Source: a phage
DNA: 64,000 nt
Strand: one strand, 5' to 3'
Sequence record: PV730302.1
Positions within the stretch are counted from its first letter, which is position 1. Each line of letters opens with the position of its first letter. Position numbers and translations under genes: made by a program. The notes under the pieces are model-generated. The model saw nothing but the letters and a program-made list of their open reading frames with translations, ran no database searches and had not been told where the DNA came from. Positions 1 through 62,826 of the stretch are shown here, in pieces.

Positions 1-1227
1 AGCAATAGTAATATCGACCATAATACCGCCACCCACACCAGCAAAACTATATACACGTTTTTTAATGAACTTGGTCTTGGTGGCTTTCCACTTCGCATCG
101 GTCAATTCATTCCAGAGGTCGTCAGGTTGGCCTTTACGAGTTTTGTTATGCCGGGCCAGCCATTCACCTTTGTATTCTTCGAAAACGGTATTAATAGCAG
201 AGGCATATTTTTCTAGAGCTTTAACAGATGTCAAAGGTTCGTTTTTGATGGCCGTAAGAATTTTATCTTTAATTTTCTCTTGGATTTCGCCAATACCGTG
301 AAGTGGGAACAATTTATAGTCGTAATGCAATTCTTCAGCAGTGCCTTCAGCTACTATATTAGCAACCCTATTTTTAGCCGCAGGAGAATTGTTATTAATG
401 ACCATTTCCTGGGCCTCAGGGATTAATGGAACTGTTGCCGGTTTATTAAAATCCGCTGCAGTAGCTTCATATTTCTTAAACAATTCACTTTCATTACGAT
501 AAGATTCCAATGATTGGCTTGCTGCAATGGCGCGCCTAGAAATCTTAGTCTTGGTTATAACCATTTTATCAGTGCGACGTTCTTCAACCTTAGCAATACT
601 GCCGGCAATAGCAGTTTCTTTAGTAACCTGCACACCTTCTTTTTTGGAAATATAAACTTCACCGACATCAGAATCTACCTTAGTATACAATTCAGCATTA
701 ATTCCAGGCATACCTTTGATATCTTCGATATCAGCTTGTTTACGAACTACTAAGATGTAAGTATGTTTACCGGTAAATTGGTACATAGCCGGAACCACTT
801 TAAAACGTCCACCGGTTTTCTGTGCTACCAAACGTTGGATAATACGTTGAACGATAGGGCCTTGACCTTTCATTTTCTTGGTAGGAAAACGGAACATCAC
901 GGCATCCATACGAAGCTTTTTAACTTGGTCATAAACCACATCAAAAATAGTATTAATCGCATCTACAGGAGTAGGGCCAAGGCCACCTTTAAGTTCGGCT
1001 GGAGTACCTTTAGCTGAAAGGCTCATAAGGATAACGTGGGCATATTTATCACCCATTTTAACTTGTTTAATAGCATCACCTTCAGAAGCGTAGGATACCA
1101 TACGAGCAACTAATTGGGATTCTGCGTCGCCGATCTTCCAAATCTGGGGTACTTTAAGTTTAGGGTTCAAGTTTACTGTAGGCAGTGTGCCTTCGGACTC
1201 AAACACTTCATTTAATTGTTCGGTCAT
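1..1227 (-). CDS. alt: Alt ADP-ribosyltransferase, N-terminal about 409 codons; 3' end lies beyond the window start
   Basis: Hand translation of the minus strand from ATG at 1227 (MTEQLNEVFESEGTLPTVNL...ISRRAIAASQSLES...) matches the remembered T4 Alt N-terminal region; open frame runs to position 1; SD AAGAGGAA upstream. Confidence 0.75.
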   Translation of the reverse strand, partial: MTEQLNEVFESEGTLPTVNLNPKLKVPQIWKIGDAESQLVARMVSYASEGDAIKQVKMGDKYAHVILMSLSAKGTPAELKGGLGPTPVDAINTIFDVVYDQVKKLRMDAVMFRFPTKKMKGQGPIVQRIIQRLVAQKTGGRFKVVPAMYQFTGKHTYILVVRKQADIEDIKGMPGINAELYTKVDSDVGEVYISKKEGVQVTKETAIAGSIAKVEERRTDKMVITKTKISRRAIAASQSLESYRNESELFKKYEATAADFNKPATVPLIPEAQEMVINNNSPAAKNRVANIVAEGTAEELHYDYKLFPLHGIGEIQEKIKDKILTAIKNEPLTSVKALEKYASAINTVFEEYKGEWLARHNKTRKGQPDDLWNELTDAKWKATKTKFIKKRVYSFAGVGGGIMVDITIA

Positions 1228-1465: not shown

Positions 1466-2989
1466 TTATAGTCCAGTTTGAGACCAATCACCAAATACAT
1501 CTTCAAATGTATCAGCTTCTGTTTTATCGAAACGCCAACCTTTAATAATTGGAAGGAAAATACCTACGGTATCAGTACGTCCTTTAGAGTGAACCCAACC
1601 ATTACATTCACAGTCGGCAATACGGCCAATCAATTTACCTTCACGAGCTTGTTTCATAAGAAGTTCACGGTCTAAATCAGGACGGTCTTCCAGTGGAATC
1701 AATACCTTTTTACCTGATTTATCTTTCTTATGGGTAGTATCTTTAAAGCCTGAGCCACAGTCACTTGTAATTCGACGGCAATGTGATACTAATTCAACAC
1801 CACCAAGTTTGTTAGGGTCCTTCGAGTGTTCATAATAACCTACCACTTCTAAAGCGATATCTATTACTTCTTTGAACTTGATAAGATTCTTAGAACGGCG
1901 ATTTTCCCAGTAGGAGTCCATGTTCTTAAGGATAATACCTTCCAGACCTTGGTCGACATATTTTTTATAAACGACTTTAGCTTCTTCAAGATTATTAACC
2001 CACTGGTTTTCGATAGCTTCAACACGCGTTGTGCCATGCAATACGACATTATGAGCAACCATAAGTTCTAAGGCTGTAAAGCGTACATCATACTTATCGC
2101 CTTTAATTTTACCTTCGGAATATACGACATCCAATGGGACATAATCCCATGCCTGTAATACCATACCAGCGGCTTCAGTAGCCGAAATAGTTCCTTGAAG
2201 AGCTTTGTTAGCCAAGCCATTTGACGTAGAACGATCGGCGACAGTTTGGAATTCCTTAGCCTTACTTAATTCAGGAAGTTCCTCGTCAAACATACTAAAC
2301 AAATCATTAGATGCTTTAGGTTCTACCTTAGGAGTATGGTAAACTAATTCGCCATCAATCATAACGCCATTAGGATGGCGTTGTCGAGCTTCTTCGGTCA
2401 TGGCCATTAATTCAGCAGCCAAAAGATTAAGCCCTTGATATTCATTACCACCACGAGTAAGGAATGTCACACCATCGTTACGAACTTCGGCAAAACAACG
2501 AGCACCATCAGCTTTTAATTGAGCAAACGCTGGCCATTTAATATTTTTCTTAATCAAAGCTTCATCATAAGAACTCGCCAACATCTGCGGTTGTTCAGGG
2601 ATTAAACCTTTCCAAACCTTGTTAGCAATAGAAATCGATGCACCACATTCAAGGTCGCGCATCATTACACGACGTAATACCTCGGCATCCGGGGCCTTAG
2701 CATCAGCAATGATTTGAGCCAGTTCTTCAATAGCCGCATTACCCGTAATCTTACGTGTGGCTAATGTGAATTCAGCGAAATCAAGAAGGTCTTCAAGAGT
2801 AATCATACCAAAGGATTGAGATGTAAATCCAGGTTCTGGCCACTTTTTAATACCGTAGTTCAGACGACGGGTATAAGCCATACGATAAACACGTTTCAGA
2901 AGCTCATTGTCCTTTTCACGAGCAATAATGGCTTCTTTAGCTTTAGTAGAATCAATAGCAGCAATTTCGTTTAAAATATCTAAAATCAT
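1466..2989 (-). CDS. 30: ATP-dependent DNA ligase (T4 gp30)
   Basis: Translation MILDILNEIAA...KRVYRMAYTRRLNYGIKKWPEPG...ECGASISIANKVW...LKADGARCFAEV...ECNGW closely matches remembered T4 DNA ligase; start set at ATG 2989 with SD GAGGTGA. Confidence 0.9.
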   Translation of the reverse strand: MILDILNEIAAIDSTKAKEAIIAREKDNELLKRVYRMAYTRRLNYGIKKWPEPGFTSQSFGMITLEDLLDFAEFTLATRKITGNAAIEELAQIIADAKAPDAEVLRRVMMRDLECGASISIANKVWKGLIPEQPQMLASSYDEALIKKNIKWPAFAQLKADGARCFAEVRNDGVTFLTRGGNEYQGLNLLAAELMAMTEEARQRHPNGVMIDGELVYHTPKVEPKASNDLFSMFDEELPELSKAKEFQTVADRSTSNGLANKALQGTISATEAAGMVLQAWDYVPLDVVYSEGKIKGDKYDVRFTALELMVAHNVVLHGTTRVEAIENQWVNNLEEAKVVYKKYVDQGLEGIILKNMDSYWENRRSKNLIKFKEVIDIALEVVGYYEHSKDPNKLGGVELVSHCRRITSDCGSGFKDTTHKKDKSGKKVLIPLEDRPDLDRELLMKQAREGKLIGRIADCECNGWVHSKGRTDTVGIFLPIIKGWRFDKTEADTFEDVFGDWSQTGL

Positions 2990-2999
2990 AATCACCTCA

Positions 3000-3278
3000 T
3001 TAGTCATGGATTCTATTATAAGCCACATCAGCCAAAAGCAAGTCTAATCGCTTATGATAAGAGAACACAAATCTCATTCGCCCATCAGATTTGAACTTGG
3101 ACATAAAGTGGACATAAATGAATCCCTGTTCGACGCATTCGCGCCAAACAGGATGGTCTTTAGCCGGATTTACATCAAATGAGTAATCATGATTCACATG
3201 ACGAATAAACTGGTTTACATGACCATAATCCATTGTAGTGGTAGGACCATAGTCTGAAATTGTATGAACTACAAACAT
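3000..3278 (-). CDS. Hypothetical protein (30.x region)
   Basis: ORF track 3000..3311; start moved to internal ATG at 3278, adjacent to the upstream ORF stop. Confidence 0.35.
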   Translation of the reverse strand: MFVVHTISDYGPTTTMDYGHVNQFIRHVNHDYSFDVNPAKDHPVWRECVEQGFIYVHFMSKFKSDGRMRFVFSYHKRLDLLLADVAYNRIHD

Positions 3279-3279
3279 A

Positions 3280-3918
3280 TTAACCTCGAGCAATCCATTC
3301 AACTGCGGCATTATTACGAAGGGATTCGATGGCTGCGATATCGTCCCATGAATTAACCTTTACGGCTAAATTAGGTTTAAAGTCACGTTCACCACGAGCT
3401 AACCAATAAACTTGGATATCCATGAGAACATTAGATGCAGCATCACAGTGGTGAGCCAAATCATCAACATAAAACTTAATACGTTTACCGTACGTATTTT
3501 TAGCTCTTATGAAGAGGTCTTCTTTTGATTCTGAATGACCACACATCAGAATCTCCTTGAATGCGCCAGGGAACAAAGCATTCAAATTGAATTGTCTATT
3601 CAGCAGGGCATCAATTGAGTCGCCTAGCGCAGTCACGGCTACAAAATCGAAGTCTTTTTTGAGCTTGTTGATATGTTTTAATGCGTCCATGTAAGGAGAC
3701 AGATAACGAATAAAATCTGACTGATTGTACTTCTCGATTAAACGAGCGCCTAATTCATTATCACAATTAAACAGCTCGCCTGGAGATAAGAAACGTTCGT
3801 CCTGAATCATATTCAAAATATGTTCTAAAGGCAAATTATATTTCTGTGCGAAATAAGGCAAGCCGGACTGCCAACTTAAACATACTCCATCGATATCTGT
3901 TAAGATAACTGGTTTCAT
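3280..3918 (-). CDS. HAD-superfamily hydrolase-like protein
   Basis: N-terminal ILTDIDGV (HAD motif I, DxDG) and later YVDD (motif IV-like) seen in the translation. Confidence 0.5.
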   Translation of the reverse strand: MKPVILTDIDGVCLSWQSGLPYFAQKYNLPLEHILNMIQDERFLSPGELFNCDNELGARLIEKYNQSDFIRYLSPYMDALKHINKLKKDFDFVAVTALGDSIDALLNRQFNLNALFPGAFKEILMCGHSESKEDLFIRAKNTYGKRIKFYVDDLAHHCDAASNVLMDIQVYWLARGERDFKPNLAVKVNSWDDIAAIESLRNNAAVEWIARG

Positions 3919-4382
3919 AATAAATCTCTCAATTTGTTTAGGATGTCGATAAACTCTTTTTCAGTTAGTATTGTATCACATTCTGTAAGGTGGCTTGCCA
4001 TAGAATGCTTTAAAACTTTGCCCTTTGTAGCTTGTAACGCATCGCGAAATCCTGGGTTTTGGATCGCTGCTTCAAAATAAGCATTTTCGTACAACTCTTT
4101 CCATGCTGTAGAGTATCTTGAAATGGGAGTTCCAAGCCAGAACAGCGTCCCGCGGTCCGCAGCTCTAGCATAAGCTCTTCCAGTTTGTTGTGCGGCCAGA
4201 CCGGACATCCCAAATATACGTTTTTGTTGTTCAACATTTTTCACCTTACACCCTTGGAGGAATCCTTCGAGTCCTCCAAATTGGATACCATCCATAACGA
4301 AAGGCCATTTAGCAAAGTTACTTAATGCGCATGATGGCCATGGGAAGTTGCTTCTAATTTCTAATTCAGACATCTTTGACAC
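3915..4382 (-). CDS. NADAR/YbiA-like (DUF1768-like) protein, putative ADP-ribose-processing N-glycosidase
   Basis: Translation contains SNFAKWPF..DGIQF..LEGFLQGCK and downstream W...A.....A..Q pattern resembling E. coli YbiA (SNFAAWPI..DGKTW..SEHYFQAQK) from memory; not a computed alignment. Confidence 0.45.
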   Translation of the reverse strand: MSKMSELEIRSNFPWPSCALSNFAKWPFVMDGIQFGGLEGFLQGCKVKNVEQQKRIFGMSGLAAQQTGRAYARAADRGTLFWLGTPISRYSTAWKELYENAYFEAAIQNPGFRDALQATKGKVLKHSMASHLTECDTILTEKEFIDILNKLRDLL

Positions 4383-4581
4383 TTATAATTTCAACATCAG
4401 CCCAATGCCCATAACCCGGCAGACGGTCTTCAATAGATAATCCGCCATCAGATTTCAGCATTTTAATTGTCATGATATAAGGGTCTAAATGGTCTGCCGT
4501 ATGAGGAGAAACATCAGTCACACGATAAGTCACTTCGACCATTTCCGTACCTAATAATTTCTGAATCAATTTCTTAAACAT
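4366..4581 (-). CDS. Hypothetical protein (71 aa)
   Basis: ORF on the early strand, tightly packed with neighbours. Confidence 0.35.
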   Translation of the reverse strand: MFKKLIQKLLGTEMVEVTYRVTDVSPHTADHLDPYIMTIKMLKSDGGLSIEDRLPGYGHWADVEIISVKDV

Positions 4582-4582
4582 A

Positions 4583-4777
4583 TTATCCTCGCTTTAAACA
4601 TTTGATTACAGACAGTTCACCACCCATGCGAACGTCTTCAGTTCCATCGACCCATAAGACGGTGTAGGCTTCTTTAATAGTATCATTACCTAATTTAAAA
4701 GCAGGTAGAACCTTGGAAATCATTCCGGGAATACCTACACCTTTTAACTGAACCGTTTGCGATAAGAATAATTTCAT
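4583..4777 (-). CDS. Hypothetical protein (64 aa)
   Basis: ORF on the early strand, abuts neighbours. Confidence 0.35.
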   Translation of the reverse strand: MKLFLSQTVQLKGVGIPGMISKVLPAFKLGNDTIKEAYTVLWVDGTEDVRMGGELSVIKCLKRG

Positions 4778-4778
4778 G

Positions 4779-5087
4779 TTAGCCTCGGTATTTCATTTGG
4801 AAGCAATGCTGCTCGTTACATTCAATAAAGAACTTGCGGTCTGCAGCAGAAATAATAATTCGTTCGTCTTGACGGGCGTCCGTTTTGATAGATTTCATAT
4901 CATAAGACACTTTATCATACGGTATATAGATTTTATACACGTCGCCATTCTGGGCGAAATCAACACGGAATAGCTCTAGACCTATTAAATCAGTTACAAG
5001 ACTGTTTATAGCATAGAACCCGTCAAGCTGACTAGTAGGCAAACAGTACCATTTACCTTCAATAAACTCTAACATAATTAACCTCAA
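4779..5087 (-). CDS. Hypothetical protein; C-terminus ...HCFQMKYRG
   Basis: ORF track; start uncertain. Confidence 0.35.
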   Translation of the reverse strand: MRLIMLEFIEGKWYCLPTSQLDGFYAINSLVTDLIGLELFRVDFAQNGDVYKIYIPYDKVSYDMKSIKTDARQDERIIISAADRKFFIECNEQHCFQMKYRG

Positions 5088-56483: not shown

Positions 56484-57098
56484 TCAGTAAGAAAGAACGG
56501 AAAGATTCCAAATGGTGTAATTATTCCATTTAGGATTTCTCTCAATAGAGTCTACGCGCAGCGTAGTTCCCGCAGGGAACATCATCTCATCTTCATCATT
56601 TATTAATTGTAAGTTTGCTACACGGGTAGATTCAGGAAATGCGCCAGGGAACTCTTCAGGGGGTGCAGCACATAACATTTTAAAGATTTCTTCCTGATAA
56701 TTGTACACAAACGGTGCATCATTAATACAAAAGATATTAAATGTGCCGTAGAAGTTATAAGATGCGAAGTTACGAGCTACATTGAAATCTTTTGAGAAGC
56801 TCATTACTCGGTCGAATTCAATTACGGCACCTACACACATTGTGGACTCTAGATACTTCATAGTCTTTTTAGATATGCCGCGATAGAGCTTATCAGGCAC
56901 TACAGAAGTCAGGTTCTTACGGATGATTTTGTTCAGAGTTTCCTGGATACAATCTGGTTTATTTTCCATGCACTGCCAGAGGGTACTCTGTTCTAAATCA
57001 GAATACACCTCATCAATTTCTATCTGAGTATTCTCACGGAAATCATCGCATTTGGCATTGTTGATAAATTCTGCTAATTTATGGCTCGGATATAACAT
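56484..57098 (-). CDS. modA: Mod-type ADP-ribosyltransferase (ModA position)
   Basis: R-S-ExE ART signature: LYRGIS, SFSK, EDEMMF; A/B assignment by gene order only. Confidence 0.55.
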   Translation of the reverse strand: MLYPSHKLAEFINNAKCDDFRENTQIEIDEVYSDLEQSTLWQCMENKPDCIQETLNKIIRKNLTSVVPDKLYRGISKKTMKYLESTMCVGAVIEFDRVMSFSKDFNVARNFASYNFYGTFNIFCINDAPFVYNYQEEIFKMLCAAPPEEFPGAFPESTRVANLQLINDEDEMMFPAGTTLRVDSIERNPKWNNYTIWNLSVLSY

Positions 57099-57152: not shown

Positions 57153-57725
57153 CTAAAAATCCAACATTTTTAAATGAATTGTTTTATACTCGATTTCATA
57201 CGGGTCTCTTTTGATGGTTTCGATTTCAACAATCTCAAATCGTGATAGGCTGGAGGCCATGAACTCACATTCAGTTTCAACCATATCATAGAGGTCTACA
57301 CGTGTCTCGTTGATTCCATTGTCTTCCACATTCCCTGCAAGAACAAGGTCTATAGCATGGTTGTAGTAGTCAAAAATGAATGGAGCATTCCTGAGACTTA
57401 AAATGGTTTTGGTTCCGTATTCCCATGCCCCTGCGAACTGACGAGCTTGGGAGTACTGCGTACTAAAAGAAGTAACACGACCTGGCGACCATTGGCAACC
57501 TACCTTAAGAAATCTTAGCTGTCTGAGCTCTTCTTGGGTAATCCCACGATATAACTCTACAGGGACGGTTGAAGTAACATGCTTACGAACTAGCTTATCA
57601 AGGTCGTAATGGAAATTAGGGTCTTCTTTAGAATTCAGACATTTCTCTAACAACGCTTGTTCAGATTTTGAGAATTTAGAATTGATTCGGTCTTGATATA
57701 GACACATTTCTTGTTCGATGTTCAT
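57153..57725 (-). CDS. modB: Mod-type ADP-ribosyltransferase (ModB position)
   Basis: R-S-ExE ART signature: LYRGIT, SFST, ETECEFM; paralogous to the 56484..57098 gene. Confidence 0.55.
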   Translation of the reverse strand: MNIEQEMCLYQDRINSKFSKSEQALLEKCLNSKEDPNFHYDLDKLVRKHVTSTVPVELYRGITQEELRQLRFLKVGCQWSPGRVTSFSTQYSQARQFAGAWEYGTKTILSLRNAPFIFDYYNHAIDLVLAGNVEDNGINETRVDLYDMVETECEFMASSLSRFEIVEIETIKRDPYEIEYKTIHLKMLDF

Positions 57726-62385: not shown

Positions 62386-62826
62386 TTAACCTCGGTTCAT
62401 AAAGGCATTAAAAATCTGGTCGTCAATTGAATAAACCGGGGCTTCCAGAATTTTCAACAGGCTGTTTTTGATATACTTGCTAGGGATATCCATATTAATG
62501 CCGTCATTCAATTCATTGTCCGGGAGGATGTCTTTAAATTCGAATCCATCAAACTCAACCTTGTCAGGAATACCTTCAGCGAAAAAATAAACCAATTGAT
62601 GCATTGCATTACATGAAAATAATTTAGACCTCACCGCAATAAGTTCTTGCCAATGGTTTAATTCTCTGTTAAGAAGTTTATGAGCCATTGTAATTCGATC
62701 ATCGCTATCAACAAGAAAATAACCTAGGTATTGGTGGTCGTCGCTCCAAAACATCCTGTATGCTTGGGCATTTGGATTTTTACAACGAAGCTTTTTGATA
62801 ACCAAAGTTCTGTTAATCTTATTCAC
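62386..62826 (-). CDS. Hypothetical protein (146 aa)
   Basis: ORF track. Confidence 0.4.
   Translation of the reverse strand: MNKINRTLVIKKLRCKNPNAQAYRMFWSDDHQYLGYFLVDSDDRITMAHKLLNRELNHWQELIAVRSKLFSCNAMHQLVYFFAEGIPDKVEFDGFEFKDILPDNELNDGINMDIPSKYIKNSLLKILEAPVYSIDDQIFNAFMNRG

Follow-up and report, generated by a model that had tools for sequence, protein, structure and literature searches.

The minus-strand gene found at positions 3915..4373 of the DNA analyzed here (the window, a stretch of 64,000 nucleotides from phage sequence record PV730302.1) is very probably the orthologue of phage T4 gene 30.3, also named adfN, coding for a stand-alone NADAR-domain DNA ADP-ribosylglycohydrolase. The gene is found in the same genomic arrangement as in T4, its product keeps the catalytic residues and an intact carboxy-terminus, and the fold modeled for it is that of NADAR proteins. 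The enzymatic activity and the anti-DarTG1 phenotype were established for the T4/T2 protein; that gp30.3 of PV730302.1 acts as T4 AdfN does is suggested by the 86% identity between the two.

Gene 30.3 and its coordinates

The window comes from a T4-like phage whose nearest relatives belong to the Dhakavirus group (QL01, Bp7 and IME08, with 94–97% DNA identity over positions 3000–5000). The gene order 30.4-30.3-30.2-30.1-30 is common to the window, JS98 and T4, the ligase gene 30 being found at 1466..3028. The first-pass annotation had described an ORF at 3915..4382. This minus-strand ORF is indeed present, with a product of 155 aa if translation starts from the GTG at 4382, but the likely initiation codon is the ATG at 4373, three codons downstream. 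The choice of this ATG, a 9-base correction, is favored because it is the annotated gp30.3 start in T4 (X53848) and JS98 and because its bases overlap those of the stop codon of 30.4, the preceding gene (ATGTCTGA). The resulting product has 152 aa and begins with MSELEIRSNF. The adfN coding sequence so defined (3915..4373, minus strand) ends with a TGA codon at 3915-3917. This stop overlaps the initiation codon of gene 30.2 in an ATGA arrangement (3915-3918) that is kept in the window, T4 and JS98.

Inside adfN, the +1 frame contains a 75-aa ORF (4010..4237, minus strand), with the offset (136 nt) and the length of the annotated T4 gene 30.3′. It was not retained as a conserved gene: this frame, open in both the window and T4, is truncated to 53 aa in JS98, and more distant homologues have it closed. 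Also located inside the 30.3 coding sequence is PM30.2, a middle promoter of T4. Its −10 part (GATACAATACTAAC) does not vary between the window, T4 and JS98 and maps to 3955..3975 (minus strand) in the 3′ end of adfN, while the MotA-box-like stretch upstream of the −10 is poorly kept among the same three sequences. A generic sigma-70 promoter scan gave a result no better than the one for shuffled sequence.

Family assignment, predicted fold and active site

At the sequence level, gp30.3 matches a single Pfam family, PF08010 (Phage_30_3, “Bacteriophage protein GP30.3”) far beyond chance (E=8e-65; 217 bits for a gathering cut-off of 36), over positions 2–138 of the 138 of the profile. Its alignment reaches the last residue without gaps both with T4 gp30.3 (86% identity over all 152 residues) and with JS98 gp30.3 (91% identity). 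None of the 21 substitutions relative to T4, a Tequatrovirus as opposed to the Dhakavirus-like phage studied here, affects a family-invariant residue. A tblastn search identified the family in 1511 phage records, mainly of Straboviridae but also of Caulobacter, Agrobacterium and Ralstonia phages. When 73 homologues with identity down to 35% are aligned, the invariant positions are P13, L17, S18, N19, F20, F25, E36, G37, F38, Q40, K43, A112, H123, T134, L136 and T137.

The initial assignment of the product as NADAR/YbiA-like relied on the pattern SNF..WP...DG..F...E.F.Q..K. A regular expression search combined with codon coordinates places an exact match at residues 18–43 of the ATG-started protein (S18–K43, SNFAKWPFVMDGIQFGGLEGFLQGCK; 4245..4322, minus strand). 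This amino-terminal core motif includes the codons of the catalytic Glu36 (4266-4268, minus strand) and Lys43 (4245-4247, minus strand). The codon of His123, the clade-defining residue of the last strand, is found at 4005..4007 (minus strand). No match of gp30.3 alone to the NADAR profile PF08719 was obtained, even at E<=1, but the profile is matched by 16 of the 72 members of the gp30.3 family (best E=1.5e-7). The objection foreseen in the first-pass annotation, lack of a NADAR/YbiA profile match, is consequently true of the single protein and not of its family. Likewise, a search of the PDB sequences with the single gp30.3 sequence returned only noise (DOT1L, E>1), YbiA being reached only by the family profile, which had E. 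coli YbiA (2b3w) as its single match (E=0.009). In this profile alignment the motif faces FSNFAAWP...SEHYFQAQK of YbiA, with the Glu and Lys of SEHYFQAQK aligned to E36 and K43. Neither gp30.3 nor gp30.2 had any match in scans against NCBIfam and PADLOC, PADLOC's DarG models being no exception for gp30.3.

The AlphaFold2 model of gp30.3, computed from an alignment of 72 sequences that did not include the one of T4, has a mean pLDDT of 94.1 and a pTM of 0.89. The three top Foldseek matches in the PDB are YbiA (2b3w), the P. nicotianae NADAR with ADP-ribose (8bau) and the G. lovleyi NADAR (8bat), the rest being noise. The model thus matches only NADAR structures. PF08010 constitutes the phage branch within the NADAR superfamily, because part of its members match PF08719, its profile finds only YbiA in the PDB, the fold matches only NADAR structures and the catalytic residues are kept. 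Phage gp30.3 had already been placed in this superfamily by an earlier bioinformatic classification, as given by Schuller et al. 2023 (PMC11543638; their reference 30).

The catalytic Glu and Lys of the E.F.Q..K element are seven residues apart, E36/K43 in gp30.3, as are E43/K50 of P. nicotianae and E88/K95 of E. coli C7, for which the catalytic roles were described (PMC11543638). E43 and E125 keep the distal ribose in place in the P. nicotianae structure, and K50 binds the pyrophosphate and the adenine (PMC11543638). By analogy, their equivalents in gp30.3 would be E36, H123 and K43, respectively. H123 is placed in the strand formed by residues 120–122/123 of the model. The residue found in the last strand sets the NADAR clades, with Glu in the YbiA type, Asp in the DarT1-linked BC4488 type and His in phage gp30.3 (PMC11125620, PMC11543638). 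DSSP analysis of the model identified an α-helix at residues 138–151 (3921..3962, minus strand), with pLDDT of ~95 or higher; this carboxy-terminal helix is intact, the alignment with T4 extending to the last residue. Every feature linked to T4 AdfN function (E36, K43, H123, full length and the helix 138–151) is kept.

The likeness to T4 AdfN includes the position of the gene, flanked by 30.4 and 30.2 and upstream of the ligase gene 30, and the ATGA overlap with 30.2. The DarG1/DarT1-associated NADAR antitoxins (BC4488 family; G. lovleyi 8bat, E. coli C7) differ from gp30.3 by an N-terminal extension that is absent from the phage protein (152 aa versus 219 for 8bat) and by a catalytic Asp in the last strand, where gp30.3 has His123. 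Furthermore, DarG1 is linked in an operon to DarT1 whereas gp30.3 is an orphan whose neighbors are 30.4 and the HAD-type 30.2, with no DarT. None of the traits of a DarG1-type antitoxin (DarT1 operon, N-terminal extension, last-strand Asp) is therefore found for gp30.3, and DarG1 is not replaceable by T4 gp30.3 in uninfected cells. At the position of His123, the PF08719 proteins E. coli YbiA (2b3w) and P. nicotianae NADAR (8bau) have a family-defining Glu (E125 in P. nicotianae). The role of YbiA is a housekeeping one, in riboflavin metabolism, and gp30.3 alone has no PF08719 score. The AdfN proteins of Bas32 and Bas60 are, like gp30.3, phage-encoded orphan NADARs, which counter DarTG1. These two were acquired independently and belong to different NADAR clades, archaeal-like and bacterial stand-alone. 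They do not need T-even infection to work, unlike the T4-type AdfN clade, gp30.3 of the window included, which needs a T-even context.

Counter-defence role and alternative functions

Resistance of T2 and T4 to DarTG1 was mapped to gene 30.3, renamed adfN for anti-DarT factor NADAR (Johannesman et al. 2025, PMC11825919). Published work establishes T4 gp30.3 as both required and sufficient for this resistance. T4 or T2 deleted for adfN does not form plaques on DarTG1 cells, and adfN supplied in trans rescues RB69 on DarTG1 hosts (PMC11825919). Purified AdfN strips ADP-ribose from DarT1-modified DNA while its E36A variant does not, and T4 AdfN is impaired by E36A, K43A and truncation of the C-terminus (PMC11825919). 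The sensitivity of RB69 to DarTG1 is due to a one-base insertion whose frameshift removes the last 15 AdfN residues and inactivates the allele (PMC11825919). Transposon insertions in T4 30.3 are lost on DarTG1 hosts, which makes the gene conditionally essential (HIDEN-SEQ 2025 preprint, bioRxiv 10.1101/2025.11.20.689424); it is dispensable on E. coli K-12 and essential only with DarTG1 (PMC11825919; bioRxiv 10.1101/2025.11.20.689424). In vitro, the NADARs tested, T4 gp30.3 among them, cleave guanine-ADP-ribose on DNA and do not hydrolyze thymidine-ADP-ribose (Toxins 2024, PMC11125620). Note that the methods of this study give the T4 gp30.3 construct as “residues 1-208” when T4 gp30.3 has 152 aa and it is T4 gp61.2 that has 208 aa, which is probably a typing slip or a tag numbering.

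The orthology with T4 AdfN supports a counter-defence function of the window gene against DarT toxins that ADP-ribosylate DNA, as had been put forward from the sequence alone and as demonstrated experimentally for the 86%-identical T4 protein (PMC11825919). On infection of a host carrying the DarTG1 toxin-antitoxin system, DarT1 would ADP-ribosylate guanines of the phage DNA and block its replication. AdfN, expressed from the early/middle 30.x transcription unit, would then hydrolyze the N-glycosidic bond that joins ADP-ribose to the amino group of guanine. Release of ADP-ribose would return the DNA to its unmodified state and allow replication to proceed. In the active site, judging from the structure of the P. 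nicotianae NADAR with ADP-ribose, Glu36 and His123 are predicted to flank the distal ribose and Lys43 to bind the pyrophosphate. Specificity could differ from that of T4 AdfN, as 14% of the residues are unlike those of T4. The mechanism is also incomplete because T4 AdfN is thought to need a further phage factor. T4 gp30.3 does not rescue E. coli from DarT1 (PMC11125620), and T4 AdfN neither neutralizes DarT1 in uninfected cells nor rescues non-T-even phages more than weakly (PMC11825919), from which the requirement for an extra T-even factor was proposed.

The identity of the gene and its counter-defence role are published knowledge and bring nothing new biologically, the T4 gene having been characterized biochemically in a 2024 paper and as an anti-DarTG1 factor in a 2025 one. 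A divergent NADAR can nevertheless be recognized by a reader of raw sequence alone. The practical value lies in annotation: the gene, still a “hypothetical protein” in the PV730302.1 phage and most of its relatives, can become adfN.

Other functions were weighed against DNA de-ADP-ribosylation. A very unlikely one is that of an enzyme acting on small molecules, either a YbiA-like N-glycosidase of riboflavin intermediates or a degrader of soluble immune signals or toxins derived from ADP-ribose. Such a role was proposed for phage NADARs before the biochemical work (PMC9503650), YbiA is among the closest structural matches of gp30.3 and the adjoining HAD hydrolase would in principle be able to act on a phosphorylated product. 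However, the clade-defining residue is a His, unlike the Glu of the YbiA family, and the phage clade is closest to the DarT1-linked antitoxin NADARs (PMC11825919). Moreover, the orthologue was directly shown to de-ADP-ribosylate DNA and has a phenotype specific to DarTG1.

The first-pass annotation had also considered editing of the phage's own ADP-ribosylation marks, and had counted Alt, ModA and ModB in the window. Two ModA/ModB-type ADP-ribosyltransferase paralogues are indeed found, at 56484..57098 and 57153..57725 (phrog_832, annotated in relatives as “RNA polymerase ADP-ribosylase (x2)”). The Alt-like ADP-ribosyltransferase is represented only by its N-terminal 409 aa, as the gene is cut by the window edge (1..1227, minus strand; phrog_802, E=2.5e-149). 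Pfam has no models for Alt or ModA/ModB, and these assignments come from PHROGs and from the annotations of relatives. Removal by gp30.3 of the marks set by such enzymes on arginines of host proteins like RNA polymerase, or by RNAylation of the ModB type, would tune host takeover. We consider this highly improbable. Beyond the presence of Alt, ModA and ModB homologues in the same genome, it could be argued from a 2022 survey that T4-like NADAR genes are early genes expressed together with ADP-ribosyltransferases (PMC9503650), and from an annotated ADP-ribosyltransferase 3 kb from the 30.3 homologue of Vibrio phage vB_VmeM-32. Other homologues, however, are found beside helicase and repair genes with no annotated ADP-ribosyltransferase within ~4 kb. 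The tested NADARs, T4 gp30.3 included, act on guanine-ADP-ribose of DNA, the literature has, as far as found, no report of NADAR activity on protein substrates, and 30.3 is dispensable on E. coli K-12 unless DarTG1 is present. Self-mark editing has thus no support other than the co-occurrence of these genes in the genome.

A decaying or inactive copy, for which RB69 with its allele 15 residues short is a precedent and for which homologues truncated to 89–126 aa are found among the database matches, is hardly credible for a full-length frame that aligns with T4 through the last residue, keeps all catalytic residues and has its C-terminal helix modeled at high confidence.

Gene 30.2 and other loci

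The HAD-like phosphatase noticed at first reading next to adfN is gene 30.2 (3280..3918, minus strand). Its HAD fold is confirmed by the AlphaFold2 model (pLDDT 94.2) and by Foldseek, which returned 143 PDB matches at E<=0.001; all 50 matches listed are HAD-superfamily hydrolases. The invariant residues D8 and D10 (DxDG), K132, D152 and D153 include all catalytic aspartates, and the nearest protein by sequence is a 5′(3′)-deoxyribonucleotidase. The protein has 212 aa in the window and 278 aa in T4.

Joint action of gp30.3 with this phosphatase, also suggested at first reading, found no support. Gene 30.2 is positioned just downstream of 30.3 in the five loci with T4 order (T4, JS98, Acinetobacter phage Lazarus, Providencia phage PSTRCR_127 and Klebsiella phage Miro). 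The two genes are adjacent in four of them and separated by two small ORFs in Miro. In the other five of the ten comparison loci (Serratia X20, Caulobacter CcrPW, Agrobacterium Atu_ph04, Vibrio vB_VmeM-32 and Ralstonia RsoM2USA) there is no 30.2 homologue within 3–4 kb of the 30.3 homologue. An obligatory 30.2-30.3 linkage, which would have been evidence of functional coupling, was rejected on this basis; the arrangement follows the general T4 gene order. Gene 30.2 goes unmentioned in the preprint text describing the T4 transposon screen on DarTG1 (bioRxiv 10.1101/2025.11.20.689424).

It is nonetheless conceivable, though very unlikely, that the translationally coupled gp30.2 could be the T-even-specific factor needed by T4-type AdfN for full activity in vivo, a candidate we retain because T4 AdfN is reported to need one. 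The protein might stabilize or localize AdfN, or process the released ADP-ribose. The conserved ATGA overlap speaks for this role, as does the near-identical spread of the two genes, which have matching genus counts and are found in 1438 (30.2) and 1511 (30.3) phage records. Gene 30.2 is also carried by RB69, a phage in which adfN functions when provided in trans. The five loci devoid of a nearby 30.2 and the silence of the preprint on this gene argue against it. The gene 30.2 product is 99–100% identical to those of JS98 and vB_EcoM_005 while the product of the adjoining adfN is 91% identical to that of JS98, a difference that points to a recombination mosaic at the junction.

The other anti-DarT1 factor of T4, AdfA, is encoded by gene 61.2. 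No canonical AdfA was found at the syntenic site of the window (62386..62826, minus strand), which is occupied, between 61.1-like and sp-like genes, by a 146-aa protein of a different family (phrog_8539 versus phrog_3781 for T4 gp61.2). The only stretch shared by this protein with T4 gp61.2 is the last 14 residues (SIDDQIFNAFMNRG, 100% identity). Since a canonical AdfA is missing at this site, AdfN may be the sole anti-DarT1 factor of phage PV730302.1, which, if true, would be relevant to predict host range on E. coli carrying DarTG1.

Among more distant phages, the ADP-ribosyltransferase annotated in Vibrio phage vB_VmeM-32 (220..984 of locus L005) is positioned upstream of the 30.3 homologue, at ~3 kb. 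In Acinetobacter phage Lazarus, the homologue has a NUDIX “ADP-ribose pyrophosphatase” (1..384 of locus L007) ~3 kb upstream, and the 30.3 homologue of Serratia phage X20 is embedded within a tRNA cluster.
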